Of a stretch of 40,963 nucleotides of DNA, positions 22,093 through 40,742 are shown piece after piece; the first letter of the stretch is position 1, and every line of letters starts with the position of its first letter. Both the position numbers and the translations under genes were made by a program. Under the pieces are notes generated by a model. The model was not told where the DNA came from and made no database searches. It saw only the letters and a program-made list of their open reading frames with translations. Origin of the DNA: Candidatus Limnocylindrales bacterium (GTDB taxonomy: Bacteria; Chloroflexota; Limnocylindria; Limnocylindrales; CSP1-4). The stretch is from NCBI GenBank assembly GCA_035703005.1, contig DASSZA010000247.1:1-40963 (forward strand), read 5' to 3'.

Positions 22093-22541
22093 GCGGCCGC
22101 GGTCGGGCGCGACCCGGCGACAGGGTCCGGGTCGCGGCGTACGCGATCGTCCACGACGAGGAGGAGCGCGTGCTGCTCTGCCACATCCACCCATCCGTGG
22201 GCGTGGGTGATGTCTGGACCCTCCCCGGCGGCGGCCTCGAGTTCGGCGAATCGCCTCGCGGGGCCGTGCTGCGCGAGCTCGAGGAGGAGACCGGCCTCGT
22301 CGGCGATGTCGAACGGCTCGTGGAGGTCGACGACCGCCTCTTCACCAGCCGGAACGGCGCCGGCCGGATGCATGCGATCCGGATCGTCTACGACGTCAAC
22401 ATCATCGGCGGGTCGCTGCGCGACGAGCTGGACGGCTCCACGGATACGTGTCGCTGGGTGGCGCCCGAGGAGGCGCTCACGATGCGCCTCGGCGAACTGG
22501 CACGGCACGCGATCGAACGAGTGGCGCCGGTCGATGCGTGA
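22089..22541 (+). CDS. NUDIX hydrolase
   Basis: Nudix box GGGLEFGESPRGAVLRELEEETGL. GTGA overlap with the flavoprotein stop. Confidence 0.85.
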   Translation: MSGRGRARPGDRVRVAAYAIVHDEEERVLLCHIHPSVGVGDVWTLPGGGLEFGESPRGAVLRELEEETGLVGDVERLVEVDDRLFTSRNGAGRMHAIRIVYDVNIIGGSLRDELDGSTDTCRWVAPEEALTMRLGELARHAIERVAPVDA

Positions 22542-23751
22542 CGGCGCCCTCGCGCCGGCGCTCGTCCTGTCGAGCCACCTCGCCGCGATGGGCACGATCC
22601 GGTGTCTCGGCGTCGCCGGGATACCCGTCGTCAACGTCCATTACGCCGACAGCGACTTCGCCCACGTCTCGCGGCACGTCCGCCATCGGATCCGGTCACC
22701 GCATCCCGAGCACGACGAGGACGCATTCGTCGGGACGTTGATCGAGGCGGCGTCGCGCTTCGGGCGATGTCTGATCGTCCCTGCCAATGACGCGACCCTT
22801 GGCGTCGTCTCGCGGCGGAAGGCCGAGTTGGAGCCGCACCACGTCGTCGCCGCGGACGACTGGTCGATCGTCGAGCGGGTCATCGACAAGCGACACACGT
22901 ACGAGCTCGCCCATCGGATCGGCGTCCCGGCCCCGCGAACGGACACGCCGACGACGCGTGCCGACGCCGAACGGATCGCCGAGACGTTCCTGTTCCCGTG
23001 CCTCGTGAAGCCGCGCGTGAGCCATCGCTACGCCGAGCTGTTCCGCGCGAAGCTCGCCCGCGTCCACGACGCGGCAGAACTGCTGCACGAATACGACCGT
23101 GCGGCCGCCGAGGACATCGAGGTGATGATCCAGGAGTACATCCCGGGCGACGACCGCCACAGCTATAACTACGACGCGTACCGGGCGCACGGTCGGTCGA
23201 TCGAATACACCGCACAGAAGCTGCGCCTCGCGCCGCCCGAGTTCGGATTGCCGCGTGTGGTCGTCAGTCGGCCTGCGCCGGACGTCATCGACCCGGCACG
23301 CCAGCTCCTCGACGCCCTCGGCTACACCGGGTACTCGTGCACCGAGTTCAAGGTGGACCCGCGCGACGGTGTGCCGAAGCTGATGGAGGTCAACGCGCGC
23401 GTGAACCGGTCTGTCCTGCATCCGCTCGCGAGCGGTATCAACTTCCCGGCGATCCTCTACCGCGACCTGATGCTCGGCGAGGCTCCCGAGGCCCCTGGGC
23501 TGCTCCCCGGACGCGCCTACTGGATCGATCTTGCGGGCGATATCCGCTACAGCGTCCGCGGCTGGCGATCGGAAGGTCTGACGTGGCGCGACTACCTGCG
23601 GCCCTATGCCGGCAGAAAGGTGTTCGCCGTGGGCGACGGCTTCGATGTGATGCCGTTCCTGAAGCGCTCGTTCGGGACGGTCGCGACGCGCTGGCGTCGC
23701 ATCCGTGGCGGCGTCAGCCGGGGCGACGGCGGGAGCGACGTCGCGGCCTGA
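22534..23751 (+). CDS. ATP-grasp carboxylate-amine ligase-like enzyme (paralogue 1)
   Basis: FPCLVKPR, MIQEYIPG, LMEVNARVNRS. 8-nt overlap with the NUDIX gene. Start is Met110 of the track ORF. Confidence 0.8.
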   Translation: MRDGALAPALVLSSHLAAMGTIRCLGVAGIPVVNVHYADSDFAHVSRHVRHRIRSPHPEHDEDAFVGTLIEAASRFGRCLIVPANDATLGVVSRRKAELEPHHVVAADDWSIVERVIDKRHTYELAHRIGVPAPRTDTPTTRADAERIAETFLFPCLVKPRVSHRYAELFRAKLARVHDAAELLHEYDRAAAEDIEVMIQEYIPGDDRHSYNYDAYRAHGRSIEYTAQKLRLAPPEFGLPRVVVSRPAPDVIDPARQLLDALGYTGYSCTEFKVDPRDGVPKLMEVNARVNRSVLHPLASGINFPAILYRDLMLGEAPEAPGLLPGRAYWIDLAGDIRYSVRGWRSEGLTWRDYLRPYAGRKVFAVGDGFDVMPFLKRSFGTVATRWRRIRGGVSRGDGGSDVAA

Positions 23752-23785
23752 TCCGGGGCCGAGCGCCACCGAGTCGGCGGCAGCC

Positions 23786-24991
23786 TCAGACGGCCTTGTC
23801 GCGCGCGAACGTCCGGCGACCCTGCTGGCTCCCGTTCCGCGTCCCCCGGCGGAAGAGCCGTGTCGCACTCGTGAGGAGCGGCCACGGATCGCTGGCCGAG
23901 AAGATCGCCAGCGCCGTGTCGGGATGGGGCACGAGTCCGCGCAGCCCGTCGCGGCGCGGTCCGCGGAGGAGCATCCGTCCGATCGCTCGGAGGTCGCCCT
24001 CTTCGTGCTGGTAGTGGACGCCGACCCGGTAGGAATCCGGCACGACCGGCTGACGGCCGAGCAGCAGGTTCACCCAGATCCCGGGCAGGTTCATCCCTGC
24101 TCGCGTCGCATGGCCGATCGACGTGTAGAAGCGCGGGTTCACGTCGATGATCGCGTAGTCATCCGCACGCTCGAACAGGTCGACCTGGAAGAGCCCGCGC
24201 CAGTCCATCGAGCGGAGCAGCGCCGCGACGCGATCCACGAGACCCGTGTCGAGTGGGATCGTGACGGCGTGGCTGATCGACCCGCACGGTGCGGGCCAGA
24301 CACGATCGGCGCGTGACTGCACCGCGCACACGATCTCGCCGTCCCAGAACACCCCGGCCAGTGAGATCAGTGGGTCGTGTACGAATGGCTGGACGAGGCC
24401 GCGGGTCCCGGGCAGCTCGGCGAGGGCGTGCTCGAGCTCGTGGAACGTCCTGGCGACGACCGTCCCGCGGTGGCGGACGACGCCGTCCTCCTCACGGATC
24501 TCGGAGCGTCCCGGCTTGACGACCACAGGGAACGGGAACGGCAGTCGCGCCGGGATGGTGTCGAGCGTCATGTCGCAGGTCGGGAGCGTCGGGAGGCCGG
24601 CGCCGGCCGCGAATCCCTGGAGCCGACCCTTGTCCGTCACGTCCATCAGCGTCGCCAGGGGCGGTACGCCGAGCACGACATCCGGCGGGAGGCGATCCGA
24701 CCGGCGCACGAGTGTCTCCATCTCGAACTCAGTCCCCGGCACGATGGCAGCGGCGGCGAGGCGCGCGGCGGCCGCGGCAAGCTCATCGACGAACGTATCT
24801 GGGGCTTCCCACGGGCTCGGCACCTCGATGACCCCGGCGCTCGCCCACGACCGAGCCGCGTACGTGCCGCGCTCGTGGACGGCGACCCACGGCGAATACC
24901 CGGCGTCGCGCAGCGCGCGCACCGCACCAAGCACGCTCACGTGCTCGCCACCGGTCAGGATGACGACGTCACCGGGACGCCGGCCATTCAT
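23786..24991 (-). CDS. ATP-grasp carboxylate-amine ligase-like enzyme (paralogue 2)
   Basis: FPVVVKPG, LVQPFV, YAIIDVNPRFYTS. Same overall layout as paralogue 1. Start is Met30 of the track ORF; no SD or -10 box seen, so the start is uncertain. Confidence 0.7.
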   Translation of the reverse strand: MNGRRPGDVVILTGGEHVSVLGAVRALRDAGYSPWVAVHERGTYAARSWASAGVIEVPSPWEAPDTFVDELAAAAARLAAAAIVPGTEFEMETLVRRSDRLPPDVVLGVPPLATLMDVTDKGRLQGFAAGAGLPTLPTCDMTLDTIPARLPFPFPVVVKPGRSEIREEDGVVRHRGTVVARTFHELEHALAELPGTRGLVQPFVHDPLISLAGVFWDGEIVCAVQSRADRVWPAPCGSISHAVTIPLDTGLVDRVAALLRSMDWRGLFQVDLFERADDYAIIDVNPRFYTSIGHATRAGMNLPGIWVNLLLGRQPVVPDSYRVGVHYQHEEGDLRAIGRMLLRGPRRDGLRGLVPHPDTALAIFSASDPWPLLTSATRLFRRGTRNGSQQGRRTFARDKAV

Positions 24992-25033
24992 TGCAGGGGA
25001 AAGGGGCACGGGTCTACGGTGAGGGTCGGACAC

Positions 25034-25059
25034 TAACGGCCGGTAACCACGTCGATAAC
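25034..25059. promoter_or_regulatory. Three phased TAAC motifs in the divergent ATP-grasp / SRPBCC-KS intergenic region
   Basis: TAAC at 25034, 25044 and 25056 (spacing 10 and 12 nt) in an otherwise GC-rich 85-bp spacer. Confidence 0.3.
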
Positions 25060-25076
25060 GAGTCGTTGCGGGGCCC

Positions 25077-25580
25077 ATGCATACCGAGATCGCGATCGAT
25101 ATCGACGCTTCGCCAGAGCTGGTGTTCGCGCTCGCCCACGACGTCGAGCGGTGGTCCGACTTGCTGCCGCACTACGTTCGATCCCGAGCCCGCGACCATG
25201 ACGCCTGGGGCCGACCGTTGGTCGATTTCATCGCGCGACGGCCACTCGTGGCCACGCTCGGCCTCGGGCTCCCTGTCGCGTGGCGGTCCCGGACGTGGAA
25301 CGAGCCCGAGACGCTTCGGCTGCGCTTCGAGCACGTCGCCGGCGCGACGCGCGGCATGTCGGTGGTTTGGGACATCGACACGCGCGGAGGCGGGGACGCA
25401 TGTCGCGTGACGATCAGGCACGAGTTCTCCCCTCGGGTACCAGGATTCGCGCGCTTCGTCGACCGCTTCTTCACCCGGCCGATCGCCGGGCGGACGCTGG
25501 CGACGTTCAAGACGCTGGCGGAAGCGGTCGATTCGGTCGACGGATCCGACCCGACCTCGCCGACGCATCGTACGGCATGA
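25077..25580 (+). CDS. SRPBCC (polyketide cyclase/dehydrase-like) family protein
   Basis: MHTEIAIDIDASPELVFALAHDVERWSDLLPHY..., the typical SRPBCC N-terminus. Confidence 0.75.
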   Translation: MHTEIAIDIDASPELVFALAHDVERWSDLLPHYVRSRARDHDAWGRPLVDFIARRPLVATLGLGLPVAWRSRTWNEPETLRLRFEHVAGATRGMSVVWDIDTRGGGDACRVTIRHEFSPRVPGFARFVDRFFTRPIAGRTLATFKTLAEAVDSVDGSDPTSPTHRTA

Positions 25581-30321: not shown

Positions 30322-32442
30322 CTAGCGCCCGCCGTGGACCTTCGGTAGCGGTGGCATGCCGCGCTTGCCCTCGATCAGGAAATGACGGAACCAGTCGAGC
30401 ACGATGCGCAGGTTCTCGACGCGGCGGAACGGGGTACCGGAACGCGTCAGTTCGTGGGTCTCCTCGGGGACCCGCAGGAGCCGGACCGGCCGGCGAAGCG
30501 TGCGCAGGACCGTGAAGAGCGCCTCGGCCTGGCCGACGGTCGTCCGGATGTCACGCTCGGAGTGCTGGATGAGCAGCGGGGTATGGATCCGGTCGGCGTA
30601 GGTGAGCGGCGAGATCTCCCGGTAGTACTCGGGGTCGCTCCAGGGCGTGGCCTCGAACTCCAGGTTCGCCCAGTCGCCGCCGCTGATATCACCCGTCAGG
30701 AAGAGCATCGACATGTCGCTCACGCAGCGGCAGGTCATCGCCGCGCGGAACCGGTCGTCGTGGCCGATGATCCAGTTCGTCAGGTAGCCGCCATACGAGC
30801 CGCCCGTGAGCCCGAGACGCTCCGGGTCCGCCAGCCCCTCCGCGACGAGCGCGTCGATGCCGGCGAGCACGTCGCGCATCGGGCCGGGTCCCCAGTCGCG
30901 ATGGTTGCCGTCGTTGAAGTCCTGCCCGTATCCCTCTGACCCGCGCGGGTTGCAGTAGAAGACGCCGATGCCCGCGCCGGCGAGGACCTGGAATTCCCAG
31001 AACGGCGACCACGCGTACAACGTGTGCGGCCCGCCGTGGATCTGCGTGACGAGCGGACTCCCCTTCCCGCCGCCCGGCATGAACCAGCCCTGGATCGATA
31101 GCCCATCGACCTGGCTGCACCGTTCGACCGGCTCGATGAGCGTCAGTTCCTCGAGAACGTCGGCGTTGAACGCCGTCAGCGGACGGGGCTCCTGGCCCTC
31201 GTCGAGCACCCACAGGTCGGGCGGCGAGGTCGGCGTCGAGCGGAGGTAGACGTGGCGCGTCCCGGCGCCGTTCGTCACCCCATCGAACGACGACAGGTGG
31301 TGCCGCCCTTGGGTCAGCCGCTTGACGGCTCCGTCGGGGACGGAGAGGCGCCACAGTTCGTAGCTGCCGTCGATCGGCGCGAGGAAGTCGATGCTGCGAC
31401 CGTCGGGCGTCGGGATCAGTCGAGCGTTCTCACCCTTGGTCACGTCTGTCGCGACCCCCGAACCTGGCATCAGGTCATGGCGACCCGAGAGGCTACGGCC
31501 GCCGTCGGCGTCCGCCTCGGAGCCATCGGCTGGAAACAGCCAGACATCGTTGCGGCTGCCGCCACGCCCCTCGAGCTTCGACCCGAGAGCTGCGATCGTC
31601 CGGCCGTCCGATAGCCAGACAGGCGCGCCGAAGACGGACTTGGGTCCACCGGTCACCGCGTGGACGGCGCGCGTCTCGACGTCGACGACGTGGATGGCCG
31701 GCCGCTCAGCGAGGTCGGCGTCGCGATGCCGGTCGGACACGAAGGCGACCCGAGTCCCGTCGGTTGACCAGGCCGGCTCGAGATCGGACACGGTCCCATC
31801 CGTGAGCCGCGACGCGGCGCCCGACGCGACGTCGACCAGCCAGAGGTGACGGATGCGGTCGTACTGGAAGCCCGGCCCATTCAGCATGTAGCCGAGACGG
31901 TCGATGAAGCGGTAGTCGGACTCCGGCTCCTCGTACGAACGCGGCTTGCGGGCCTTGCCACGTCGACGGGCGTCTTCCTCGTACGTCGCGCCGTGCGAGG
32001 TCGACACGACGACGAAGCGCTTCCCGTCGGGTGACCATTCGAACGCCTCGACGCCGCGCGGCAGATCGGAGACACGCCTCGCCTCGCCGGGACCGTCGAC
32101 CGGCAGGACGTGGATCTGGTCCTTGTCCTCACGCTCGCTAGCGTCTTTCGGGCGGGCGGGCTCGGCCTCGGCCTGCAACCGGCGGTCCGAGATGAAGGCC
32201 AGCCAACGACCATCCGGCGAGAAACGCGCCGCGCGATCGTTGCGAGCCCCGATCGTCAGCTGGCGCGGGCCGCCGTCCCGGGCGGGATCCGTCGGGACCA
32301 GCCAGAGCGCCTGCCGATACTCGTCGTAAGTGGGAGCGACCGACTGGAGCGTGACGACGGCCCATCGCCCGTCCGGCGAGAGGCAGGGTTCCGTCGCGAT
32401 GCGCAGCCGATACAGGTCGTCAGGGCGCGGGGGGCGCGGCAC
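30322..32442 (-). CDS. S9-family serine peptidase (acylaminoacyl-peptidase/prolyl-oligopeptidase-like) with an N-terminal beta-propeller
   Basis: Repeated SPDGRW/SPDGKR propeller blades. Nucleophile elbow GGSYGGY. C-terminal HSERDIR and EETHEL (Asp/His contexts). GTG start. Confidence 0.9.
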   Translation of the reverse strand: MPRPPRPDDLYRLRIATEPCLSPDGRWAVVTLQSVAPTYDEYRQALWLVPTDPARDGGPRQLTIGARNDRAARFSPDGRWLAFISDRRLQAEAEPARPKDASEREDKDQIHVLPVDGPGEARRVSDLPRGVEAFEWSPDGKRFVVVSTSHGATYEEDARRRGKARKPRSYEEPESDYRFIDRLGYMLNGPGFQYDRIRHLWLVDVASGAASRLTDGTVSDLEPAWSTDGTRVAFVSDRHRDADLAERPAIHVVDVETRAVHAVTGGPKSVFGAPVWLSDGRTIAALGSKLEGRGGSRNDVWLFPADGSEADADGGRSLSGRHDLMPGSGVATDVTKGENARLIPTPDGRSIDFLAPIDGSYELWRLSVPDGAVKRLTQGRHHLSSFDGVTNGAGTRHVYLRSTPTSPPDLWVLDEGQEPRPLTAFNADVLEELTLIEPVERCSQVDGLSIQGWFMPGGGKGSPLVTQIHGGPHTLYAWSPFWEFQVLAGAGIGVFYCNPRGSEGYGQDFNDGNHRDWGPGPMRDVLAGIDALVAEGLADPERLGLTGGSYGGYLTNWIIGHDDRFRAAMTCRCVSDMSMLFLTGDISGGDWANLEFEATPWSDPEYYREISPLTYADRIHTPLLIQHSERDIRTTVGQAEALFTVLRTLRRPVRLLRVPEETHELTRSGTPFRRVENLRIVLDWFRHFLIEGKRGMPPLPKVHGGR

Positions 32443-32448
32443 GCGGAG

Positions 32449-32454
32449 AGTCTA
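32449..32454 (-). promoter_or_regulatory. Candidate -10 box TAGACT, 6 nt before GTG 32442 (leaderless-type)
   Basis: Minus strand reads ACGACTAGACTCTCCGC-GTG. Confidence 0.4.
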
Positions 32455-32512
32455 GTCGTACCACGTGCGCGCGCAGGGCCGTCCCGACGCGGCCGCGCTG
32501 GCCTGCCAGGAC

Positions 32513-32518
32513 TACCAT
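32513..32518 (+). promoter_or_regulatory. Candidate -10 box TACCAT, 8 nt before ATG 32527 (leaderless-type)
   Basis: Plus strand reads GGACTACCATCGGCGCGG-ATG. Confidence 0.4.
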
Positions 32519-32526
32519 CGGCGCGG

Positions 32527-33273
32527 ATGACCGACCAGCTCACGCTGCCGCTCGACGCCACAGCCGATCGACTGCCCGACCTGCCCGAGCTCCGGCCGAT
32601 GCTCGCACGGCCGCTTCCCGAGGCGTTCGATTCGGAGCAGCACCTGTTCGAGCCGTGGTGGGGCGGGACGCGGGCATTGCTTTCGATCGGGCCGTCCGAG
32701 CGACCGGGCGATGGCGATGTGCGCGTGATCGACGCCGACGATGTCGATCGGACCGCGATGCTCCCCGAGCTCGCCGGGACGGGCGTCCGTGTCGCAGCCC
32801 GCTCGGCGATCCTCGATGGCGAGCTCGTCGTGGTCGACGCGGACGGGCGCGCGGATCAGGCGGCCCTCGAGCGACGACTCGACGGGAAAGGCGGCAGGCC
32901 GGTGGCGTTCCTGGCCTTCGATCTGCTGCATCTCGACGGCAAGTCGCTCATCAATCAACCGCTCGTCAAGCGGCGCGCGACGTTGCGACGCGTCCTCCGC
33001 CCTGGTGATGAGGTCGTCGCGGTCCCGGCGATCGCGACCGAGGGACGCGCGTTGTTCGATGCGATCGTCGAGCAGGGGCTCGCCGGGATGATGGCGCGTC
33101 AGCGGCTCGCGCCGTATCTGCCGGGGGTCCGCAGCCGGCTGTGGCGGTTCATCCCGGCCGTCGAGGGAAGCGTCCCTGCCTCCGAGCTCGCCGACGCCCC
33201 GGAGGAGCCGACCTCGGCGACCGCGCCCGTCCTCGCGATGCTCAGCCGGTTGCCGTTGGAGGACCAGGCCTAG
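32527..33273 (+). CDS. ATP-dependent-DNA-ligase-like adenylation-domain protein with degenerate catalytic motifs
   Basis: Collinear with LigD/LigC ligase-domain motifs: PMLARPL, FEPWWGGTR (motif I ExKxDGxR with K->W and D->G), ILDGELVV (III), FLAFDLLHLDG (IIIa), GLAGMMAR (IV, EGxxxK with E->A and K->R), RSRLWRFIP (V, WxKxK lysines lost). No OB-fold domain follows. Confidence 0.7.
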   Translation: MTDQLTLPLDATADRLPDLPELRPMLARPLPEAFDSEQHLFEPWWGGTRALLSIGPSERPGDGDVRVIDADDVDRTAMLPELAGTGVRVAARSAILDGELVVVDADGRADQAALERRLDGKGGRPVAFLAFDLLHLDGKSLINQPLVKRRATLRRVLRPGDEVVAVPAIATEGRALFDAIVEQGLAGMMARQRLAPYLPGVRSRLWRFIPAVEGSVPASELADAPEEPTSATAPVLAMLSRLPLEDQA

Positions 33274-33276
33274 GCG

Positions 33277-34599
33277 TCAGCTGGTACGACGCGCCGCCGC
33301 GATGAACTGGCGCAGCCCGGGTCGTTGGCCGTACAACAGGACACCCGTCGCGTAGACCCGTACGGTGACGACGGCGACCCCCGCGATGGTCACGAGCAGG
33401 ATCACGACAGACAGGACCACCTCGAGCGGATGCACGTCGCTGACCATGAGCCGCGCGAGCATCGCGAACGGGCTGAACGGCGGCACGAGCGAGGCGATAC
33501 GTGCGAGCGTGCCCGTCCCACCGCCGAGCAGCACGAGCAGCGCTGACAGGTAGCCGCCCATCGCGACGAGGCTCAGCGGTAGTGACAAGGTCTGGAGGTC
33601 GTCCGGTCGGCTCACGAACGACCCGACGGCCGCGTAGATGAGCGCGAACAGCGCGAAGCCGAGCAGGAAGAACAGGCCGTAAGCGGCGATCAGTCCGATC
33701 GTCAGGCCCCCGGTCGGCAGACCGGCCTGGCCGGAGCCGAGGATCGCACCCGCGATCTGCTCCTGGAACGCGAGGACGAGCATGACCGGGACCGCGATCG
33801 CGATGTACTGGGTCAGTCCCGCGCCACCGATCCCGACCACCTTGCCGACCAGCAGCTGCCGCGGTGAGGCCGCGCTGATCATCAGCTCCATGACCCGGCT
33901 GCTCTTCTCGGTCGCCACGCCGGTCGCGACCCACATCCCGTAGATCAGGATCGTGATGAACATCAGGATGATGAACACGGTGCCGAGGAAGCCGCGACTC
34001 GCGACCACGACCGCGTCGACCTGACGACCGCCTTCCGTCGGCGCGACCAGTGACTCGGTCGTGAACGTCGGCGTTCGGAACGCGCCCAGCTCCGAGCCCT
34101 TCGGCAGCGACGCCGTCCAGTCGAGGATGCCGAGCGACAACGCCGCGAACCCGGCGAGCTGGCTGCGGACCCCGTCCGCGGGCCCGAGGGTCCGGTACGT
34201 CACGGCGAGCTGCCGATCCGGCTGGCGGACGACCTCGATGATCGCGTCGATCCGGCCGTCGGCGAGCGCCTGGAGCGCGACATTCCGGTCCAGCTCCCGG
34301 GCGATCTGGTACGGCGCCTTCCAGCGCCTGCGGTCGACGCCGGGCGGCGGCAGATTCATGACGCCTTCGGCCGTCGCCATGATGCCCTGCGCGAGGCGAT
34401 CCTCCTCCGCGACGACACGGATCTGGCGGACGCTCGCCTGGTCGAAGTAGCGCAGGACGATCGGCGTCATCGCGACGCCCACGGCGAGCGCCATCAGGAC
34501 GATCGTCGAGATGCGGTAGAGCTTGCTTCGGACGCGCTCGCTGTACTCGCGACGCGCGACGGTTCCGGCATTCGGGAACAGCGGGTCGTGGCGCGCCAT
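33277..34599 (-). CDS. ABC-2 type transporter permease (NatB-like)
   Basis: N-terminal TM segment, a large extracytoplasmic loop, then 5 C-terminal TM segments. 1-nt overlap with the upstream ATPase. Confidence 0.8.
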   Translation of the reverse strand: MARHDPLFPNAGTVARREYSERVRSKLYRISTIVLMALAVGVAMTPIVLRYFDQASVRQIRVVAEEDRLAQGIMATAEGVMNLPPPGVDRRRWKAPYQIARELDRNVALQALADGRIDAIIEVVRQPDRQLAVTYRTLGPADGVRSQLAGFAALSLGILDWTASLPKGSELGAFRTPTFTTESLVAPTEGGRQVDAVVVASRGFLGTVFIILMFITILIYGMWVATGVATEKSSRVMELMISAASPRQLLVGKVVGIGGAGLTQYIAIAVPVMLVLAFQEQIAGAILGSGQAGLPTGGLTIGLIAAYGLFFLLGFALFALIYAAVGSFVSRPDDLQTLSLPLSLVAMGGYLSALLVLLGGGTGTLARIASLVPPFSPFAMLARLMVSDVHPLEVVLSVVILLVTIAGVAVVTVRVYATGVLLYGQRPGLRQFIAAARRTS

Positions 34600-35543
34600 C
34601 AGGCCGCGTCCTCCTGGTCGACCGGTTCCTCGATCACGTCGGACGGCCGCCCGACGAGCTCGACGAAGATCGCCTCGAGCGACGGTTCCGCCACCTCGAA
34701 TCGACTGACGAGTGCGCCACGCTCGAGGGTGGCAGCGAGGATGTCACGCGGCTCGACGCCGGCCATCAGCTCGATCTCGGCGAACCCAGCACCGGGCCGA
34801 ACGGCGGCCACGCCGTCGATCGACGCGAGCCACGTCGGTGCGATCTCGCCTTCGATGCCGAGTCGCACGGTCCGCGCGCGCGACGATCGCTTCAGTTCAG
34901 GGACCGTACCGGCGGCGACGAGCCGGCCATGATCGACGATCACGAGTGACTCGCAGAGGGCCTCGGCGACCTCCATCTGGTGGGTGGAGAAGACGATCGT
35001 CCGCCCCGCGTCGCGCAGCTCGATGAAGGCATCGCGAAGCAAGGCAAGGTTCACTGGATCAAGCCCGGTGAACGGCTCGTCCATGAGCAGGACATCCGGG
35101 GCGTGGAGGATCGCCGCGATGAACTGGACCTTCTGCTGATTGCCCTTGCTGAGCTCCTCGGCCCGGCGTTCCGCGAGGTCCGGGATGCGGAAGCGGTCCA
35201 GCCAACCGAGCGCGTTCGCGCGCGCGTCCGCCGGCCGCTCTCCATACAGGGAAGCGAAGTAGACCAGCTGGTCGATGACGGTGAGTCGGGGATAGAGGCC
35301 GCGCTCTTCCGGGAGATAGCCGAACGTGCGCCGCGGCAGATCGGTCGAGGGGACGCCGCCCCAGCGGACTTCACCCTCGTCGGCGCGCAGGATCCCGAGA
35401 CAGATCCGCATCGTCGTCGTCTTTCCGGCGCCGTTCGCGCCCAGGAAGCCGAAGATCCTGCCGTCGGGCACGCTGAACGCAAGCTGATCGAGCGCCACGG
35501 TCCGCCCGAACCGCTTCGTGACGCGGTCGATCTCGAGGGTCAT
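34599..35543 (-). CDS. ABC transporter ATP-binding protein (NatA-like)
   Basis: MTLEIDRVTKRFG; Walker A GANGAGKTTT; signature SKGNQQKV; Walker B LLMDEPF. Start is Met134 of the track ORF. Confidence 0.9.
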   Translation of the reverse strand: MTLEIDRVTKRFGRTVALDQLAFSVPDGRIFGFLGANGAGKTTTMRICLGILRADEGEVRWGGVPSTDLPRRTFGYLPEERGLYPRLTVIDQLVYFASLYGERPADARANALGWLDRFRIPDLAERRAEELSKGNQQKVQFIAAILHAPDVLLMDEPFTGLDPVNLALLRDAFIELRDAGRTIVFSTHQMEVAEALCESLVIVDHGRLVAAGTVPELKRSSRARTVRLGIEGEIAPTWLASIDGVAAVRPGAGFAEIELMAGVEPRDILAATLERGALVSRFEVAEPSLEAIFVELVGRPSDVIEEPVDQEDAA

Positions 35544-35551
35544 CGCGCCCG

Positions 35552-35557
35552 AGGATA
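35552..35557 (-). promoter_or_regulatory. Candidate -10 box TATCCT, 8 nt before ATG 35543, flanked by the CCGAGG/CCTCGG inverted repeat (35549-35565)
   Basis: Minus strand reads GGTCTATCCTCGGGCGCG-ATG. Confidence 0.4.
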
Positions 35558-35588
35558 GACCTCGGCCCTCGGTGCCGCCGCTGGGTCG

Positions 35589-36077
35589 ATGGTCATGGTG
35601 CGGTCCGGTGCGGTCCAGGCGCCAGACTGGCGCACGCCGCGCAAGTGCGACAATCGAGATGTGACGACCGATACGACCGGAGGCGCAGCAACGACTACGC
35701 CGACCCGGATCCACGCTGACCGGGGAGCCGGCACCCTCGAGATCGACTGGGCCGATGGGCACAACACGGTCTATGGATTCGAGGCCCTGCGCTGGCTGTG
35801 CCCGTGCGCGTATTGCCGAGGCGAGGCCGGGATGCCGGGCTGGCTCGACAGCGCACCGACACTCAGCCCGCAGCAGATCCAACTGACCGACCTGCACCTG
35901 GTCGGCAATTACGCGGTCTCGCCGCATTGGGCGGACGGCCACAAGACGGGCTACTACCCGTTCCGACTCCTGCGCGACCGGTGCCCGTGCCCAGAATGCA
36001 CCGCGCGACGCGCGCGAGAGAGCGGCGACACGATCGGCCGTCCGTCACCGGCCGGGACGCACGAGGAGCATCGATGA
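35589..36077 (+). CDS. DUF971-family protein (gamma-butyrobetaine-hydroxylase N-terminal-like)
   Basis: Two half-repeats: LEIDWADGHNTVYGFEALRWLCPCAYC and YAVSPHWADGHKTGYYPFRLLRDRCPCPEC. Alternative start GTG 35661, preceded by GACAAT plus 6 nt. Confidence 0.7.
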   Translation: MVMVRSGAVQAPDWRTPRKCDNRDVTTDTTGGAATTTPTRIHADRGAGTLEIDWADGHNTVYGFEALRWLCPCAYCRGEAGMPGWLDSAPTLSPQQIQLTDLHLVGNYAVSPHWADGHKTGYYPFRLLRDRCPCPECTARRARESGDTIGRPSPAGTHEEHR

Positions 36078-36429: not shown

Positions 36430-36774
36430 ATGGGCGTCGACGTGACCCGCCTCCTGGTCTTCGGGTTCGGGATCGTCATGACGCTGGCCGGCGTGTCGCT
36501 GCTGGCGGCACAACAGCCGGCCGGCCTGTGGCTGTTGATCACTGGCCTCATCTTCATCGTCGCCGCGATCCTCGAACGCGTCCGATATCGCTCGAACGAG
36601 GCCGAGGCGACCGCCGAGCGGCCCGGGCCGGGTGGCGGTGAACCGGCAGGCACCACGCTCGACTCCCGCTTCCGCCCGACAGAGGAGCGGTTCGAGGACC
36701 CGACGACCGGCGTCCGGATGCGCGTCTGGGTCGATCCCGTGGCCGGCGAACGGCGGTACGTACCAGAAGACTGA
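36430..36774 (+). CDS. Hypothetical two-TM membrane protein
   Basis: LLVFGFGIVMTLAGVSLLA and LWLLITGLIFIVAAIL. Starts 2 nt after the ybjQ-like stop. Confidence 0.55.
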   Translation: MGVDVTRLLVFGFGIVMTLAGVSLLAAQQPAGLWLLITGLIFIVAAILERVRYRSNEAEATAERPGPGGGEPAGTTLDSRFRPTEERFEDPTTGVRMRVWVDPVAGERRYVPED

Positions 36775-36879: not shown

Positions 36880-39060
36880 ATGGCCGCCGTCGAACCAGGA
36901 GCACCTGCCCGGACCGCGGTCACGCCACGCCCCCGTCGCGTCACGAAGCGTGAGCCATCGCCCCTGCCCTATCTGAACCGCGAGCTGTCCTGGCTCGAGT
37001 TCAACGCACGCGTCCTCTACGAGGCGCGCGATGCCAGGAACCCGCTCCTCGAGCGGGCGAAGTTCGCGGCGATCTTCGCCGGCAACCTCGACGAGTTCTT
37101 CCAGGTCCGCATCGCCGGGCTGCGTCAGCAGGTGGAGTCGGGCACCGTCACGCGTGCGCCCGATGGCCGGACACCGCCGGAGCAGCTCGCGGCAGCGCGA
37201 GAGCGCGTGCTGGGGCTCGTCGCCGAGCTCTCCGACATCTTCACTGAACTGCGCCGCGCGCTCGCGCTCGAGGGCGTCCACATCGTCGACTACGCGGAGG
37301 TGCCCGAACATCACGAGGCGCTCCGCCAGCGCTTCCTCGACGAGATCTTCCCGGTCCTCACCCCGCTCGCGGTGGACCCGGGCCACCCGTTCCCGTACAT
37401 CTCCAGCCTGAGCATGTCGATCGCGGTCGGCCTGCGCGATCCGGAGACGAACGAGCGCGTGTTCGCTCGTGTAAAGGTGCCGCAGATCCTGCCGCGGCTG
37501 CTCGAGGTCGAGACGCACAAGTTCGTCCTCATCGAGCAGGTCATCGAGGCGAACCTGCAATACCTGTTCACGGGCATGGAGGTCGTCGACTCGCACCTGT
37601 TCCGGGTCACCCGAAACGCCGACTTCACGGTCGAGGAGGACGAGGCCGACGACCTGCTGATGGCGATCGAGGAGGAGCTGCGGCGCCGGCGGTTCGGTGA
37701 AGCGGTCCGCCTCGAGGTCGAGCGGACGATGCCGGCGGCGACGCGCAACCTCCTCCTGCGTGGGCTGGGCCTCGAGCCTGAGGACAGCTACGAGATCGCC
37801 GGGATGCTCGATCTCACTGCGCTGTACCGCATCGCCGACCTCGACATCCCGGAGCTTCGGACGCCGCCGTGGACACCCGTCACGCCGCCCCGGCTCGTGC
37901 CACCCGATGAGGACGAGCCGGCCGATGTCTTCGCGGCGATCCGCGCCGGTGACATCCTCGTCCACCACCCCTACGAGTCGTTCGCCGCATCCGTGGAGCG
38001 GTTCATCGCGCAGGCCGCCGATGACCCCGACGTCCTGACCATCAAGATGACCCTGTACCGCACGTCGGGTGACTCACCGATCGTGCAGTCGCTGATCCGT
38101 GCCGCAGAACGCGGCAAGCAGGTGGTCGTCCTCGTCGAGATCAAGGCGCGCTTCGACGAGGAGGCGAACATCATCTGGGCCCGCAAGCTGGAGCGCGCCG
38201 GCGCCCATGTCGTCTATGGGCTGGTCGGGCTGAAGACGCACTCGAAGACGGCGCTCGTGGTACGCCGCGAGGGCTCAGGGCTGCGCCGGTACGTCCACAT
38301 CGGGACGGGCAACTACAACCCGAAGACGGCGCGCCTGTACGTGGACCTCGGTCTGCTGACGGCACGCCCGGAGATCGGTGCCGACGTGACCGACCTGTTC
38401 AACGTCCTCACGGGGCTGTCGCGACAGCGCACGTTCCGCAGGTTGCTCGTCGCCCCGCACAGTCTCCGCCAGGGGTTCATCGACCTCGTCGAGCGCGAGA
38501 TCGCGCACGCGACTGCCGGCCGGCCGGCGCACATCGTGCTCAAGCTCAATGCCATCGTCGACGTGCCCGTGATCGAGGCCCTCTACCGGGCGGCCAGCGC
38601 CGGCGTCGACATCGACCTGATCGTTCGAGGCGCCAGCTCGATCCAGCCCGGTCTGCCCGGCATCTCGGAGCGGATCCACGTGCGATCGATCATCGGTGAG
38701 TTCCTGGAGCACTCCCGGATCTGGGGGTTCGAGAACGGCGGCGACCGGGAGTGGTACATCGGCTCGGCCGACTTGATGGATCGCAACCTGGACCGGCGGG
38801 TCGAGGCGGTCGTCCCGGTGGAGGACTCCGAAGCCCGTACACGGATCAGCGAGATCATCGAGCTCATGCTCGCCGACGATCGCCGATCGTGGCAGCTCCA
38901 GCCGGACGCGCGCTGGGTGCGCACCGAGGTCCTGGAGGGGCAGCCCGGCACGATCGACACGTTCGAGACGCTGAAGGAACGCGCGCTCGAGTCAGGCGCG
39001 GTCGCGTCCGTCCCACGACGGCCGGGTGCCGGAGCCGGCTCGCTGGACCCGCGGGCGTGA
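36880..39060 (+). CDS. ppk1: Polyphosphate kinase 1
   Basis: YLNRELSWLEFNARVL, FFQVRIAGL, LKTHSKTALVVR (phospho-His context), and two PLD-like C-terminal domains. Confidence 0.95.
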   Translation: MAAVEPGAPARTAVTPRPRRVTKREPSPLPYLNRELSWLEFNARVLYEARDARNPLLERAKFAAIFAGNLDEFFQVRIAGLRQQVESGTVTRAPDGRTPPEQLAAARERVLGLVAELSDIFTELRRALALEGVHIVDYAEVPEHHEALRQRFLDEIFPVLTPLAVDPGHPFPYISSLSMSIAVGLRDPETNERVFARVKVPQILPRLLEVETHKFVLIEQVIEANLQYLFTGMEVVDSHLFRVTRNADFTVEEDEADDLLMAIEEELRRRRFGEAVRLEVERTMPAATRNLLLRGLGLEPEDSYEIAGMLDLTALYRIADLDIPELRTPPWTPVTPPRLVPPDEDEPADVFAAIRAGDILVHHPYESFAASVERFIAQAADDPDVLTIKMTLYRTSGDSPIVQSLIRAAERGKQVVVLVEIKARFDEEANIIWARKLERAGAHVVYGLVGLKTHSKTALVVRREGSGLRRYVHIGTGNYNPKTARLYVDLGLLTARPEIGADVTDLFNVLTGLSRQRTFRRLLVAPHSLRQGFIDLVEREIAHATAGRPAHIVLKLNAIVDVPVIEALYRAASAGVDIDLIVRGASSIQPGLPGISERIHVRSIIGEFLEHSRIWGFENGGDREWYIGSADLMDRNLDRRVEAVVPVEDSEARTRISEIIELMLADDRRSWQLQPDARWVRTEVLEGQPGTIDTFETLKERALESGAVASVPRRPGAGAGSLDPRA

Positions 39061-40742
39061 CCGAGGAGGTCGAGCTCAAGTACCGCGTGGGAGACCTGGC
39101 CGCCGCTGAACGCGTCCTCGCGGCGGAACGGCTCGGACCATTCACCGGCGGCGCCACTGGCGCCAGGGCGACCCAGCTCGAGGACCGCTACGTCGACACC
39201 GCCGACGGCGCCCTTGCCCATGCCGGGTTCGCCGTCCGGCTCCGCCAGAAGGGCGGCGAGACGATCGTGTCCGTGAAGTCGCTCGCCCACTCGGAAGGAC
39301 CGGGCGGCAGCTTTGCTCGCGAGGAGCTCGAGGGGCCGGCCGACCGCGTGGCGCCACCGAGCGACTGGCCCGCCTCCGACGCGAGGGCGCTCGTCCTCGA
39401 ACACGCCGGCGATGCGCCGCTCGTCGAGCGCGTGACGATCCGGCAGCTCCGTCGCGTCCGCCAGCTTCGCGCCGCATCGACCCGCGTCGAGCTCAGCCTC
39501 GACGAGGTGGACGTGGTGGCCCGAGGTCGCGTCGTCGAACGCTTCATCGAGCTCGAGGCCGAGCTCATGAAGGGCGATCGGGCGGATCTCGCCGCACTGA
39601 GTGAGGCGATCGAGACCGAGACCGGCCTGGAGCGGGCTGCGACGAGCAAGCTCGAGGTGGCCCTCGCGGCACTCAACGGGTCCGGGAACGGGCAGGCGCC
39701 CGAACCCGAGGCGAAGCCCGCCGTTCGGTCACGCAAGCGCGCGGAGCCGGCTGGCGAGCCGGACTCCGAAGCGGAGGACAACGAGGAGAAGGCCGAGCCG
39801 CGCCTGGTCACAGGCAAGACACCGGGCGTCCTCGCCGAGGACACGGTCGCGGAGGCGGGGCGCAAGGTGATGCGCTTCCACCTCGCGCGGATGATCGACC
39901 GTGAGCCTGGCGTCCGCGAAGGCAAGGACATCGAGGACATCCACAAGATGCGTGTCGCGACCCGCCGCCAACGCGCCGCGTGGCGGGTCTTCGGCGAGGC
40001 GTTCCGGAAGCGGCGTACGCGGACCTACCGGGACGGTCTCCGCGACGTCGCGCGACGGCTCGGGGCGGTGCGCGACCTCGACGTCCAGCTCGAGGGGATC
40101 GACAACTACCGTGCGGACCAGCCGGTCACCGATCAGCGCGCGCTCGAACCACTGATCGGGTCGCTGCGGCAGCATCGCGACGACGCCCGCGTGCTCCTCA
40201 TCCGCGAGCTCGACTCCGGCGCGTACGCCCGCTTCGTCGACGACTACATGGACTTCGTGCGGACCGAAGGCGCCGCCGCGCGTCCGGTGAACGCCTCCGC
40301 TCCGCACCGCGTGCGCGAGACCGCGCCGTCACGCATCTGGGCCGCCTATGAGCAGGTGCGCAGCTATGAAGCGATCCTGCGCTGGGCCGACGTCGCGACC
40401 CTCCACGAGCTGCGCATCGCCGGGAAATGGCTCCGCTACTCGCTGGAGTTCGTCCAGGAACCGCTCGGGGACGACGCGCTGCCGCTCATCGCCAAGGTGA
40501 CCGCGCTCCAGGACCACCTCGGACTGATGAACGACGCGAGCGTCGCGGCCTCGATGACGCGCACGTTCCTGGTGGAACGGGCCGGCGAGCTGAGCTCTGC
40601 GGAGACGGCCGGGATCGGCCGGTACTTGGTCGACCGCGAGCGGGAGGTCGGGCGTCTTCGACGGACGATCGGGCCGACGTGGCGACGCGTGGCCGGCCTC
40701 AGCTACAGGCGCGCACTCGGCCGGGTGGTCGCCGACCTCTAA
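39057..40742 (+). CDS. CYTH-CHAD two-domain protein
   Basis: GTG start within a GTGA overlap with the ppk1 stop. CYTH N-terminus EVELKYRV...ELEAEL; acidic/lysine linker; CHAD motif IHKMRVATRRQRAAWRVF with repeated helical RxxxR patterns. Confidence 0.85.
   Translation: MTEEVELKYRVGDLAAAERVLAAERLGPFTGGATGARATQLEDRYVDTADGALAHAGFAVRLRQKGGETIVSVKSLAHSEGPGGSFAREELEGPADRVAPPSDWPASDARALVLEHAGDAPLVERVTIRQLRRVRQLRAASTRVELSLDEVDVVARGRVVERFIELEAELMKGDRADLAALSEAIETETGLERAATSKLEVALAALNGSGNGQAPEPEAKPAVRSRKRAEPAGEPDSEAEDNEEKAEPRLVTGKTPGVLAEDTVAEAGRKVMRFHLARMIDREPGVREGKDIEDIHKMRVATRRQRAAWRVFGEAFRKRRTRTYRDGLRDVARRLGAVRDLDVQLEGIDNYRADQPVTDQRALEPLIGSLRQHRDDARVLLIRELDSGAYARFVDDYMDFVRTEGAAARPVNASAPHRVRETAPSRIWAAYEQVRSYEAILRWADVATLHELRIAGKWLRYSLEFVQEPLGDDALPLIAKVTALQDHLGLMNDASVAASMTRTFLVERAGELSSAETAGIGRYLVDREREVGRLRRTIGPTWRRVAGLSYRRALGRVVADL

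Follow-up and report, generated by a model that had tools for sequence, protein, structure and literature searches.

Kinases, phosphatases and polymerases have all given rise to well-known pseudoenzymes, and in eukaryotic non-homologous end joining (NHEJ) the accessory factors XLF, PAXX and APLF dock by short terminal Ku-binding motifs carried on disordered tails. In known DNA ligases, the OB domain, with motif VI, is needed for step 1. The ligase can also matter when it does not catalyze, as Lig4 that has lost its catalytic activity still sustains end synapsis and repair (PMC9638927, PMC10858965, PMC11754673). The literature presents bacterial NHEJ as a system of two components, Ku and LigD, so that a further dedicated subunit without catalytic activity would be a novelty; in this system, the C-terminus of Ku is reported to contact the ligase domain of LigD (bioRxiv 10.64898/2025.12.12.693941). 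A dead enzyme of a different fold is represented by ImuB, a Y-family polymerase without catalytic activity, which docks on the beta clamp and acts as a bridge for ImuA'/DnaE2 (PMC11791113, PMC10421592), its binding to the clamp having been reported experimentally (PMC10421592). As for the ligases, a full-text literature search for a conserved family of ATP-dependent DNA ligase paralogues devoid of the nucleophilic Lys retrieved none.

Here, we describe a gene for a ligase-like protein found in a stretch of 40,963 nucleotides (hereafter, the window) of a Candidatus Limnocylindrales bacterium of the phylum Chloroflexota (contig DASSZA010000247.1 of assembly GCA_035703005.1), and we compare its product with LigD, with its own homologues and with relatives encoded in Ku/LigD operons.

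The gene and its start signal

The pseudo-ligase gene starts with ATG, ends with TAG and encodes a protein of 248 aa (Table 1). The start at 32527 is fixed by the N-terminus common to the family, M-x-D-Q-L, together with the –10 element; a longer ORF of 387 aa, starting from GTG 32110, was rejected since it runs into the S9 peptidase gene, which lies on the opposite strand. The first-pass annotation of the window, made from the sequence, had recognized a promoter of the leaderless type, consisting of TACCAT followed by 8 nt, and the comparison of orthologues confirms it: a TANNNT hexamer ends 6–11 nt before the ATG in 81/81 orthologous upstream regions, in which the flanking bases are variable, and it reads TACCAT in nearly all of the upstream sequences displayed. 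No Shine-Dalgarno motif was detected in the 81 regions compared, and a generic sigma-70 scan upstream of the pseudo-ligase gene gave no –35/–10 pair. When the upstream loci were inspected by eye for SOS/LexA-type or other common regulatory motifs, nothing conserved was found beyond the –10 element.

Table 1. Features of the pseudo-ligase locus, with positions numbered along the window.
Feature	Position	Strand	Basis
–10-like hexamer TACCAT	32513..32518	+	8 nt upstream of ATG; leaderless or near-leaderless start
Pseudo-ligase CDS, stop codon included	32527..33273	+	PF01068 E=5.8e-18; dN/dS 0.06–0.37 vs 80 orthologues
N-terminal motif Q4-L-T-L-P-L9 (family consensus D-Q-L-S-L-R-L-E)	32536..32553	+	Matches beta-clamp-binding hexapeptide Q-phi-x-L-x-L
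Nucleotidyltransferase (NTase, adenylation) domain, residues 21–211	32587..33159	+	AF2 pLDDT, Foldseek
Degenerate motif I, F-E-P-W-W-G-G-T-R (canonical E-x-K-x-D-G-x-R)	32647..32673	+	1vs0 alignment, family columns
Intact motif III, L-D-G-E-L-V-V-V, residues 96–103	32812..32835	+	D97, G98, E99 invariant
Intact motif IIIa, F-L-A-F-D-L-L-H-L-D-G, residues 128–138	32908..32940	+	F131 120/139, D132 invariant
Degenerate motif IV, G-L-A-G-M-M-A-R (canonical E-G-x-x-x-K)	33076..33099	+	1vs0 alignment, family columns
Degenerate motif V, W-R-F-I-P (canonical W-x-K-x-K)	33142..33156	+	W206 = LigD motif V Trp; column counts
Variable acidic/Pro/Ala linker, residues 212–230	33160..33216	+	pN/pS 0.82; length varies among homologues
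C-terminal motif APVLAMLSRLPLED	33217..33264	+	Consensus A-P-V-L-A-L-I-x-R-L-P-[LF]-[DE]-[DE]

A LigD-type adenylation domain with degenerate motifs

The protein had been assigned by the first-pass annotation to the adenylation domains of the LigD type, with motifs I, IV and V degenerate, motifs III and IIIa intact, a Trp codon (TGG at 32656–32658) in place of that of the nucleophile and no OB-fold domain, and all of these assignments hold when examined by profile, alignment and structure. The Pfam profile PF01068 (DNA_ligase_A_M) matches the protein with 65.8 bits, against a cut-off of 26.2, over profile positions 1–200/204. The best NCBIfam model is TIGR02779 (NHEJ_ligase_lig), which describes the ligase domain of LigD; its match scores 106 bits, below the curated cut-off of 227.75, and stops at 180/302, covering only positions 1–180. 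The AF2 model has a pLDDT of 87.5 overall and above 93 across the core, a result obtained by adding a distant subclade to the input, as close homologues alone (76–92% identity) gave 38.6. The predicted fold superposes on LigD: the top Foldseek matches are the M. tuberculosis LigD structures 6nhx, 1vs0 and 6nhz (E about 1e-14, rmsd 2.2–2.7 Å over about 195 columns of the NTase subdomain, 28–30% identity), and the probability is 1.00 to LigD, Lig1 and archaeal ligases. The ligase domain of M. tuberculosis LigD is, hence, the best match in both sequence and structure.

The motif register, taken from a HMMER alignment to the M. tuberculosis LigD ligase domain 1vs0, is unambiguous, since FEGKWDGYR of LigD aligns with FEPWWGGTR of the window protein (F41, W44, G46, R49). 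In motif I the nucleophilic Lys is replaced by Trp44 and the Asp by Gly46, Gly47 and Arg49 being retained; in motif IV, EGVIAK of LigD corresponds to A186-G-M-M-A-R191, with Glu changed to Ala186 and Lys to Arg191; in motif V, both Lys are gone. Like LigD, the window protein keeps motifs III and IIIa, the Gly and Arg of motif I and the S-x-Y-x-x-G-x-R-S-x-x-W segment; unlike LigD, it is devoid of the nucleophilic Lys, the Asp of motif I, the Glu of motif IV, the Lys of motif V and the OB subdomain. In fact, the protein ends 38 residues past motif V, lacking both the OB domain and motif VI, and is predicted by AF2 to be disordered from about residue 215.

Loss of catalytic residues and purifying selection

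The replacement of the catalytic Lys is a trait of the whole family and not a unique decay of the window gene. Column counts in 139 aligned members give, at position 44, W58 S55 T13 A3 R3 L2 F2 H1, with Lys in 0/139, whereas R49 is found in 139/139; position 46 is G in 133/139, Glu survives at position 186 in a single member, position 191 is R in 119 and K in 20, and Lys is again 0/139 at each of positions 208 (F/Y/L/S) and 210 (A/P/R/E). The invariance of D97, G98, E99 and D132 and the frequency of F131 refer to the same 139 members. More than 230 cluster representatives were inspected, and among the diverse representatives the nucleophilic Lys was seen in one exception only, P0156, which looks like an assembly chimera. 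The residues that hold the adenosine in active ligases, namely the motif I Arg, the motif III Asp/Glu, the motif IIIa Phe and the motif IV basic residue, are retained family-wide while the residues for phosphate and metal are lost. The features that distinguish an active ATP-dependent DNA ligase, i.e., the Lys of motif I, the Glu of motif IV, the Lys-x-Lys of motif V and the OB domain with motif VI, are all missing, and the window protein is, as judged from these residues, a stand-alone LigD-type NTase domain predicted to be unable to form the lysyl-AMP intermediate.

This inert fold is maintained by selection. The comparison of the window gene with 80 orthologues gave a median dN/dS of 0.25 within the range reported in Table 1, an uninterrupted ORF is present at 81/81 orthologous loci, and the family reaches down to about 33% identity with its motifs unchanged. 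The view already expressed in the first-pass annotation, that the ligase fold is catalytically inert but retained and that the gene is not a decaying pseudogene, is therefore supported by the register, the column counts, the purifying selection, the superposition on LigD, the intact ORFs and the conserved promoter element. A relative is encoded by 332 species genomes; the best 80 of the 332 are all Chloroflexota, mostly labelled Limnocylindria/Limnocylindrales, and carry a single-copy gene, with its own promoter, in a fixed chromosomal slot. In a neighbor-joining tree of the NTase domains, which has no support values and on which we place no weight, Lys-less groups that contain the OB domain fall between the short-form family and active LigD.

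Conserved peptides at both ends of the protein

The low-complexity acidic/Pro tail that had been annotated at the C-terminus corresponds to the linker of residues 212–230; the description does not apply to residues 231–246, which follow this variable linker and form a strongly conserved motif. P234, A237, L242 and P243 are each conserved in at least 94% of members, and 110/114 distant members carry [RT]LP[LF]. At the other end, conservation among the 139 members is at least 90% at each of Q4, L5, L7 and L9, positions 6 and 8 vary, and the motif occurs in 101/114 distant members. Both tails are predicted to be disordered, with a pLDDT of about 54 for residues 1–10, falling from about 80 to 60 over residues 211–230 and below 50 from residue 228, and both are as constrained as the folded core: pN/pS is 0.32 for the N-terminal motif, 0.30 for the core and 0.32 for the C-terminal motif, the linker being near neutral. 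Such motifs on disordered tethers are not in the crystallized M. tuberculosis LigD ligase-domain sequence that was aligned. In the long form P0162, described below, the place of the linker is occupied by an OB-type domain. Both terminal motifs, as well as the link to LigD/Ku operons, had been overlooked in the first reading of the sequence, and we rate them as the most informative features of the family.

Gene neighborhood and relatives in Ku/LigD operons

In the window, the pseudo-ligase gene is flanked by a divergent S9 peptidase gene and by a convergent ABC-2 permease gene (3-bp gap), which excludes an operon partner; the arrangement is the same in the 80 closest loci. The best 80 loci of the 332 have the order DeoC – S9 peptidase – pseudo-ligase – ... 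– DUF971-like – PPK1, and neither Ku nor LigD was found within 8 kb in the window or in any of the 80 closest loci. A role in anti-phage defence was also considered and rejected, as PADLOC gave no match for the window protein, P0162 or P0263.

The connection with end joining comes from longer relatives. P0162 has the N-terminal motif DQLTLQL, a Ser in place of the Lys, an OB domain (TIGR02779 positions 2–296/302, at 138 bits, below the 227.75 cut-off) and the C-terminal tail LLALLQRLPLPED. Its gene (locus L094) lies 5 bp upstream of that of a bona fide LigD, which passes TIGR02776/02777/02778/02779, with 264.5 bits, above the cut-off, for TIGR02779. The two genes are located between DeoC, 74% identical to that of the window, and a GBBH-like_N gene, which is the syntenic slot of the window gene. 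In Dormibacteria, Lys-less relatives are encoded 4–18 bp downstream of Ku, in operons of the order LigD-HNH-Ku-X (L088, L092 and L093, where X is the Lys-less relative) or Ku-X-LigD (L087); their tail reads F.PT.L.PLP[LI] and their N-terminal motif is rich in Leu/Pro, without a strict Gln. The named matches of a search with a Ku profile derived from L087/L088 were all from Dormibacteria/Dormibacterota, with the exception of one Candidatus Acidoferrales, and a metagenome scan with P0162 returned only distant relatives (27–48% identity) and no new informative loci. The LigD and DeoC proteins of L094 gave no match when looked up by exact sequence.

The Dormibacteria proteins and P0162 share with the window protein the Lys-less motif I and a C-terminal tail of the form ..L..LP[LIF][DE], and in P0162 the QLxLxL is identical and the chromosomal slot is the same. 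Unlike the window protein, which is OB-less, 248 aa long, monocistronic and away from Ku/LigD, they keep the OB domain, measure 327–376 aa and are encoded nearly contiguously, and probably co-transcribed, with Ku and/or LigD. These Lys-less ligase-like proteins have apparently not been described before.

Possible functions of the pseudo-ligase

Three options had been put forward in the first-pass annotation for the inert fold: binding of nicked or broken DNA, binding of a nucleotide, or a function as partner or regulator of a repair enzyme. The gene context of the relatives favors the last, with LigD/Ku as the repair machinery concerned. The core of the window protein, with a pI of 6.2, is close to neutral and the full-length protein, with a pI of 4.8, is acidic, compared with 8.7 for the corresponding NTase fragment of M. 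tuberculosis LigD. These values, and the lack of the OB domain, speak against strong binding to DNA by the protein alone. The conserved residues of the adenosine pocket keep the nucleotide-binding option alive.

The reading that we prefer, with a probability of roughly one half, is that the window protein is a non-catalytic adaptor or regulator whose ancestor was an accessory subunit in end joining by LigD/Ku. Its inert NTase core would serve as a binding module, for which the C-terminal arm of Ku, an adenine nucleotide or a 5'-adenylated/5'-phosphate DNA end are candidate ligands, and the two tethered peptides would dock the pseudo-ligase onto partner proteins. For the N-terminal QLxLxL, the pattern match makes the beta sliding clamp the most plausible partner; for the C-terminal PVLAL..RLPL[DE], Ku or LigD appears the most plausible, because the tail is common to Ku- and LigD-adjacent relatives. 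The lineage of the window would have lost the LigD gene at its side as well as the OB domain, and the protein may therefore act in trans or be partly repurposed. What counts against this reading is that Ku and LigD were not found within 8 kb of the gene in the window or in the 80 closest loci. A more specific formulation, which we advance tentatively and with less confidence than the adaptor reading itself, is that Chloroflexota (Dormibacteria and Limnocylindria) possess a third, non-catalytic NHEJ subunit, a dead paralogue of the LigD ligase that would bridge or regulate Ku, LigD and the clamp through its terminal peptides, of which the window protein would be the minimal, OB-less version working in trans. 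It would be a functional analogue of the XRCC4/XLF/PAXX-type scaffolds of eukaryotes and of the structural role of inactive Lig4, with no sequence relationship to them beyond the ligase superfamily.

It is also conceivable, though unlikely, that the protein is centred on the beta clamp and has nothing to do with end joining: QLxLxL would tether the dead NTase to the clamp on DNA, where it would occupy or sense nicks, or compete with LigA, Pol I or mismatch repair, and the C-terminal L-P-L motif might enter the second pocket of the clamp dimer. Clamp-binding peptides are penta- or hexapeptides (QL[SD]LF or Q-phi-x-L-x-L) located in exposed flexible regions, and QLTLPL, placed at the extreme terminus in a segment predicted to be disordered, has this form, with its Gln and the three Leu fixed while the x positions are free, and recurs in most of the distant members. 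It differs by one conservative residue from the QLSLPL hexapeptide carried by Hda (bioRxiv 10.64898/2026.05.27.728225), the AAA+ regulator of DnaA in E. coli, in which it is likewise found at the extreme N-terminus and to which the likeness of the window protein is limited to the peptide. ImuB offers a precedent, being a dead polymerase with a clamp motif (PMC11791113), and the parallel extends to the use of a stripped enzyme fold as a hub with a clamp-binding peptide and a second interaction motif; however, its fold is that of a polymerase rather than of a ligase NTase, and the clamp link of the window protein is a motif match only. Leu/Pro-rich peptides are, moreover, common in high-GC proteomes, no dnaN or replication gene is found near the window gene, and the motif may not be universal, as binding of hexapeptide motifs was at least ten times weaker with the B. 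subtilis clamp than with that of E. coli (bioRxiv 10.64898/2026.05.27.728225). Finally, the looser N-terminal motif of the Ku-linked Dormibacteria relatives, with no fixed Gln, means that the clamp reading may not be ancestral.

Less probable still is a sensor or regulator responding to adenine nucleotides (ATP/AMP/ADP) and tied to polyphosphate metabolism, whose tails would contact PPK1, CYTH-CHAD or the DUF971 protein. The retention of the adenosine pocket with loss of the phosphate/metal residues would suit it, and in deep-branching members the pseudo-ligase gene precedes, by 19 nt and in the same orientation, a GBBH-like_N/DUF971 gene, which is followed by PPK1, CYTH-CHAD and Ppx; the same DUF971/polyphosphate genes are present in the window beyond an inserted ABC transporter pair. 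This synteny is an alternative context that we counted against the LigD/Ku adaptor reading. Synteny in the class extends, however, over the whole 15-kb region and takes in DeoC and the S9 peptidase, which are unrelated genes, and adjacency is therefore weak evidence for a polyphosphate link. In addition, a full LigD gene separates the pseudo-ligase and DUF971 genes in L094, the link is inconsistent in Dormibacteria, in which L092 alone has a PhoU/PHO4 phosphate pair after the gene, and we know of no precedent for a dead ligase fold with such a role.

A cryptic enzyme working without covalent Lys-AMP, by using a pre-adenylated substrate, by de-adenylating AppDNA or through another nucleophile, seems very improbable. 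The Arg of motif I, the Asp/Glu of motif III and the Arg/Lys of motif IV are retained, and related lineages of the P0246 type have lost the Lys alone, keeping motifs IV and V; on the other hand, the family of the window protein has also lost the metal-binding Glu of motif IV and both Lys of motif V, the residue at its nucleophile position changes freely among members, and the OB domain that would bring motif VI is absent. No other invariant Lys was found when one was sought in the family alignment, and H39, the single conserved His, is often seen in active LigD-type ligases as well, so that a relocated nucleophile was rejected. As for a decaying pseudogene or functionless remnant, which the loss of every catalytic residue and of the OB domain could suggest, this reading is already refuted by the conservation data, i.e., by the intact ORFs, the low dN/dS, the conserved –10 element and the motifs kept in the most distant members.

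Implications

The long forms are built into Ku/LigD operons, and this suggests that the family represents an unrecognized accessory factor of bacterial non-homologous end joining. It provides a natural separation-of-function family, in which a non-catalytic ligase fold, accompanied in some members by the OB domain, is combined with two short docking peptides, and which could be used to address both the structural role of the ligase at a break and the part played by the sliding clamp in LigD-type repair. Members of the family are currently annotated automatically as 'bifunctional non-homologous end joining protein LigD' or 'ATP-dependent DNA ligase' and, for the window protein, such annotation credits these bacteria, which are abundant in soil and freshwater, with more repair capacity than is warranted.

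A LigD Ligase Core Deprived of Its Catalytic Residues

The 248-aa protein analyzed here (hereafter the pseudo-ligase; Table) matches the Pfam profile DNA_ligase_A_M (PF01068) with 65.8 bits (gathering score, 26.2), over model positions 1-200 of 204, and its top NCBIfam model is TIGR02779, the LigD ligase domain (106 bits where the cut-off is 227.75), whose match stops at position 180 of 302. M. tuberculosis LigD ranks first among PDB sequences searched with HMMER (6nhx, 6nhz and 1vs0; E about 1e-13), and the printed alignment to 1vs0 fixes the motif register. In motif I, FEPWWGGTR lies opposite FEGKWDGYR, with the AMP-accepting Lys replaced by Trp44 (codon TGG, 32656-32658) and the Asp by Gly46; in motif IV, AGMMAR lies opposite EGVIAK; in motif V, W206 is aligned to the LigD Trp and the W-x-K-x-K segment reads WRFIP. 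Motif III (LDGELVVV) and motif IIIa (FLAFDLLHLDG) have been left intact. These pairings confirm what the first-pass annotation had read by eye, namely degenerate motifs I, IV and V beside preserved motifs III and IIIa.

An AF2 model built from the family alignment (139 sequences, 31-92% identity) reached a pLDDT of 87.5 and a pTM of 0.81, as against a pLDDT of only 38.6 from a shallower alignment; confidence exceeds 93 for residues 21-211, is about 54 for residues 1-10 and falls below 50 for residues 228-248. Foldseek comparison of this model with the PDB returned ATP-dependent ligases only, with the LigD ligase domain on top (6nhx, E=2.7e-14; 6nhz, rmsd 2.2 Å over 192 columns; 1vs0 also among the leaders). 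The C-terminal OB subdomain, already reported as missing, is found neither in the model nor in the TIGR02779 match.

Loss of the nucleophile is a property of the whole family. A first homology search yielded 120 cluster representatives, 76-92% identical to the pseudo-ligase and nearly all of 247-250 aa; in the 121 aligned sequences, including the window protein, the nucleophile position is occupied by W (104) or S (17) and never by Lys. With representatives at 50% identity and a second search started from a distant member, the family reaches down to about 33% identity and its features persist; the replacing residue varies, being chiefly W or S (Table). W45, G47, R49, D97, G98, E99, D132, Y197, G200, S203 and W206 are invariant in the 139-sequence alignment, F131 occurs in 120 of 139, and position 191 is always basic (R in 119, K in 20). 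From Chlorella-virus ligase and LigD, we take the retained residues to be the adenosine-binding part of the pocket and the lost ones to be the nucleophile and the metal/phosphate contacts. A relocated nucleophile is unlikely, since no column of this alignment holds an invariant Lys and the conserved His39 is likewise common among representative active LigD-type ligases. The sole "family member" with a Lys, P0156 (246 aa), is probably a metagenome assembly chimera: its N-terminal half is Lig1-type-like with an intact EDKYDGIR, and its C-terminal half belongs to the pseudo-ligase family, including an RLPFDDE tail. As judged from its residues, the pseudo-ligase is thus shown to be unable to use canonical lysyl-AMP chemistry. 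It is nevertheless maintained by selection, with pairwise dN/dS of 0.06-0.37 (median 0.25) across 80 orthologues, and the earlier argument against a decaying pseudogene is borne out by these values and by the reach of the family.

Conserved Terminal Peptides

Both termini carry a short motif that had been overlooked in the first reading. The N-terminus, M-T-D-Q-L-T-L-P-L-D, has Q4, L5, L7 and L9 each at least 90% conserved in the 139-sequence alignment, with positions 6 and 8 free to vary, and 101 of 114 distant family members carry QLxLxL. Its QLTLPL matches the published hexapeptide clamp-binding pattern Q-phi-x-L-x-L, as do QLSLPL at the N-terminus of E. coli Hda and QLVLGL of Pol IV (bioRxiv 10.64898/2026.05.27.728225). 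In the C-terminal motif, A-P-V-L-A-M-L-S-R-L-P-L-E-D, which follows a linker of varying length and composition, P234, A237, L242 and P243 each reach a conservation of at least 94% in the same alignment, and [RT]LP[LF] is present in 110 of 114 distant members. Both motifs lie within low-confidence, predicted disordered segments of the AF2 model and are as constrained as the core (Table). The anatomy is that of a folded module to which flexible tethers attach two short linear motifs; what is shown is a ligase nucleotidyltransferase (NTase) core whose adenosine pocket is conserved, as are the two terminal peptides.

Genomic Context and Promoter

In a species-level scan, for which each species contributed a single genome, 332 genomes encode a relative. 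The 80 best matches all come from Chloroflexota MAGs, for the most part labelled Limnocylindria/Limnocylindrales, and share the order DeoC, S9 peptidase (-), pseudo-ligase (+), ABC-2 permease/ATPase (-), small DUF971-like gene, PPK1 and CYTH/CHAD. In the window the gene is monocistronic, being divergent from the peptidase gene and convergent with that of the permease; only 3 bp separate the stop codons of pseudo-ligase and permease (33271-33279), leaving no space for an intergenic terminator, and a terminator scan found none at this junction. The proposed leaderless-type promoter is supported: in 81 of 81 upstream regions a TANNNT hexamer, TACCAT in nearly all those displayed, ends at a distance of 6-11 nt from the ATG, with varying flanks and no Shine-Dalgarno motif. 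A generic sigma-70 scan found no -35/-10 pair. Upstream alignments also show a conserved AGTCTAG between the divergent genes (about 32440-32460), whose reverse complement is a -10-like element, TAGACT, immediately preceding the peptidase start, suggesting that a second promoter of the leaderless type may be arranged back to back with the first.

The DUF971-like, PPK1 and CYTH-CHAD genes form a polyphosphate cluster (window; also loci L082, L084, L085 and L086), with Ppx beyond them in loci other than the window. In deep-branching family members the pseudo-ligase precedes the DUF971 gene by 19 nt in the same orientation, so that the ABC-2 pair appears to have been inserted in the lineage of the window.

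Coordinates of genes, protein segments and alignment columns (genes in the window unless a locus is named; columns from the 139-sequence alignment)
Feature	Position	Strand	Details
Pseudo-ligase ORF	32527..33273	+	ATG start, TAG stop, 248 aa
S9 peptidase gene	30322-32442	-	GTG start at 32442
ABC-2 transporter pair	33277-35942	-	
Small DUF971/GBBH-like_N-type gene	36430-36774		downstream of pseudo-ligase
PPK1	36880-39060		downstream of pseudo-ligase
CYTH-CHAD protein gene	39057-40742		downstream of pseudo-ligase
Two adjacent aldehyde-dehydrogenase-family ORFs	16575-19144	-	shorter ORF matches N-terminal half of model only
Two adjacent ATP-grasp-like ORFs	22207-25078	opposite	beside polyketide-cyclase-like gene
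HNH nuclease gene, L088	4549-5067		between LigD and Ku
HNH nuclease gene, L092	5414-5935		between LigD and Ku
HNH nuclease gene, L093	5393-5914		between LigD and Ku
N-motif	residues 3-10		pN/pS 0.32
Core	residues 25-211		pN/pS 0.30
Linker	residues 212-230		pN/pS 0.82
C-motif	residues 231-246		pN/pS 0.32
Motif I Lys	position 44		W58 S55 T13 A3 R3 L2 F2 H1; K 0
Motif I Asp	position 46		G in 133
Motif IV Glu	position 186		A112; E in 1
Motif V Lys 1	position 208		F, Y, L, S; K 0
Motif V Lys 2	position 210		A, P, R, E; K 0

Relatives Encoded With Ku and LigD

Neither Ku nor LigD is encoded within 8 kb of the pseudo-ligase in the window and the 80 closest loci. The representative search also returned longer LigD-like proteins (307-376 aa) without the motif I Lys. 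The gene for one of them (P0196, labelled Dormibacteria; locus L087) follows Ku at 10 bp and precedes a full LigD by 8 bp; that for another (P0263, L088) lies 8 bp after Ku in an operon LigD-HNH-Ku-X, which recurs in L092 and L093, reached from two further Ku proteins. A fifth relative (P0244, L090) abuts a full LigD. Aligned with the pseudo-ligase, the Ku-adjacent proteins show a motif I K->E/D change, an N-terminal motif rich in Leu and Pro, and, opposite PVLAMLSRLPLE, the C-terminal tail F-x-P-T-x-L-x-P-L-P-[LI].

The decisive case is P0162 (362 aa; locus L094), which has the exact family N-motif PDQLTLQLD, motif I FEPSWDGLR, motif V RSDLWRLV, an OB-type domain (TIGR02779 positions 2-296 of 302 covered) and, at its C-terminus, the family tail LLALLQRLPLPED. 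Its gene is located 5 bp upstream of a LigD that passes TIGR02776, 02777, 02778 and 02779 and has motif I EPKWDGVR, and the two are flanked by DeoC (74% identical to the window DeoC) and a GBBH-like_N gene, the slot occupied in the window by the pseudo-ligase. The closest architectural relatives are thus shown to be encoded with Ku and LigD. These features, the shared slot and the Ku/LigD-adjacent relatives indicate that the window protein is an OB-less descendant of a Lys-less LigD paralogue, which would have been adjacent to LigD and/or Ku, as it still is in some lineages, and probably co-transcribed with them.

Other OB-bearing LigD-ligase-like lineages (P0246, P0244, P0214, P0167, P0163 and P0240) lack only the motif I Lys; P0246 reads FEVLWDGLR and retains motifs IV (DGIIAK) and V (WLKLR). 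Nucleophile loss in LigD paralogues thus seems to have happened repeatedly or early. The Dormibacteria end-joining operons are unusual in containing an HNH nuclease of 172-173 aa (Table); the L092 copy, the only one scanned, matches IscB/Cas9-type HNH and PtuB models.

Proposed Role and Alternatives

With a probability of about one half, the pseudo-ligase serves LigD/Ku repair as a non-catalytic adaptor or regulator. Its NTase core may bind the C-terminal arm of Ku, for which contacts with D522, K579 and L580 of the LigD ligase domain are reported (bioRxiv 10.64898/2025.12.12.693941); in the 1vs0 alignment, these residues correspond to A91 and the conserved helix 146-156 of the window protein. 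Alternatively, the ligand of the core might be an adenine nucleotide or a DNA end, even if the missing OB domain and a pI of 6.2 for the core and 4.8 for the whole protein (8.7 for the corresponding NTase fragment of M. tuberculosis LigD) argue against strong DNA binding by the protein alone. The N-peptide would most plausibly dock on the sliding clamp, and the C-peptide on Ku or LigD, because it is common to the operon-encoded relatives. Similar logic is found in ImuB, a dead polymerase that acts as a clamp-binding hub (PMC11791113), and in inactive Lig4, which has a structural role without catalysis (PMC9638927).

A clamp-centred role unrelated to end joining is unlikely. Distinctly less probable is a nucleotide-sensing role connected with the neighbouring polyphosphate genes, to which the close spacing with DUF971, followed by PPK1, in deep-branching members would point; the whole region is syntenic, however, and in L094 a LigD gene lies in between. 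A cryptic enzyme is more improbable still, and a pseudogene is already rejected by the data.

Significance

Full-text searches of the literature on Lys-less or inactive LigD-type ligases, bacterial NHEJ accessory factors and Limnocylindria ligases found no description of this family. Databases name its members "bifunctional non-homologous end joining protein LigD", "ATP-dependent DNA ligase" or "hypothetical protein"; the first two prevail in JGI and are misleading for a 248-aa protein without catalytic residues. We class the family as a branch of pseudoenzymes within the LigD ligase domain and suggest, tentatively, that Chloroflexota may possess a third, non-catalytic NHEJ subunit.
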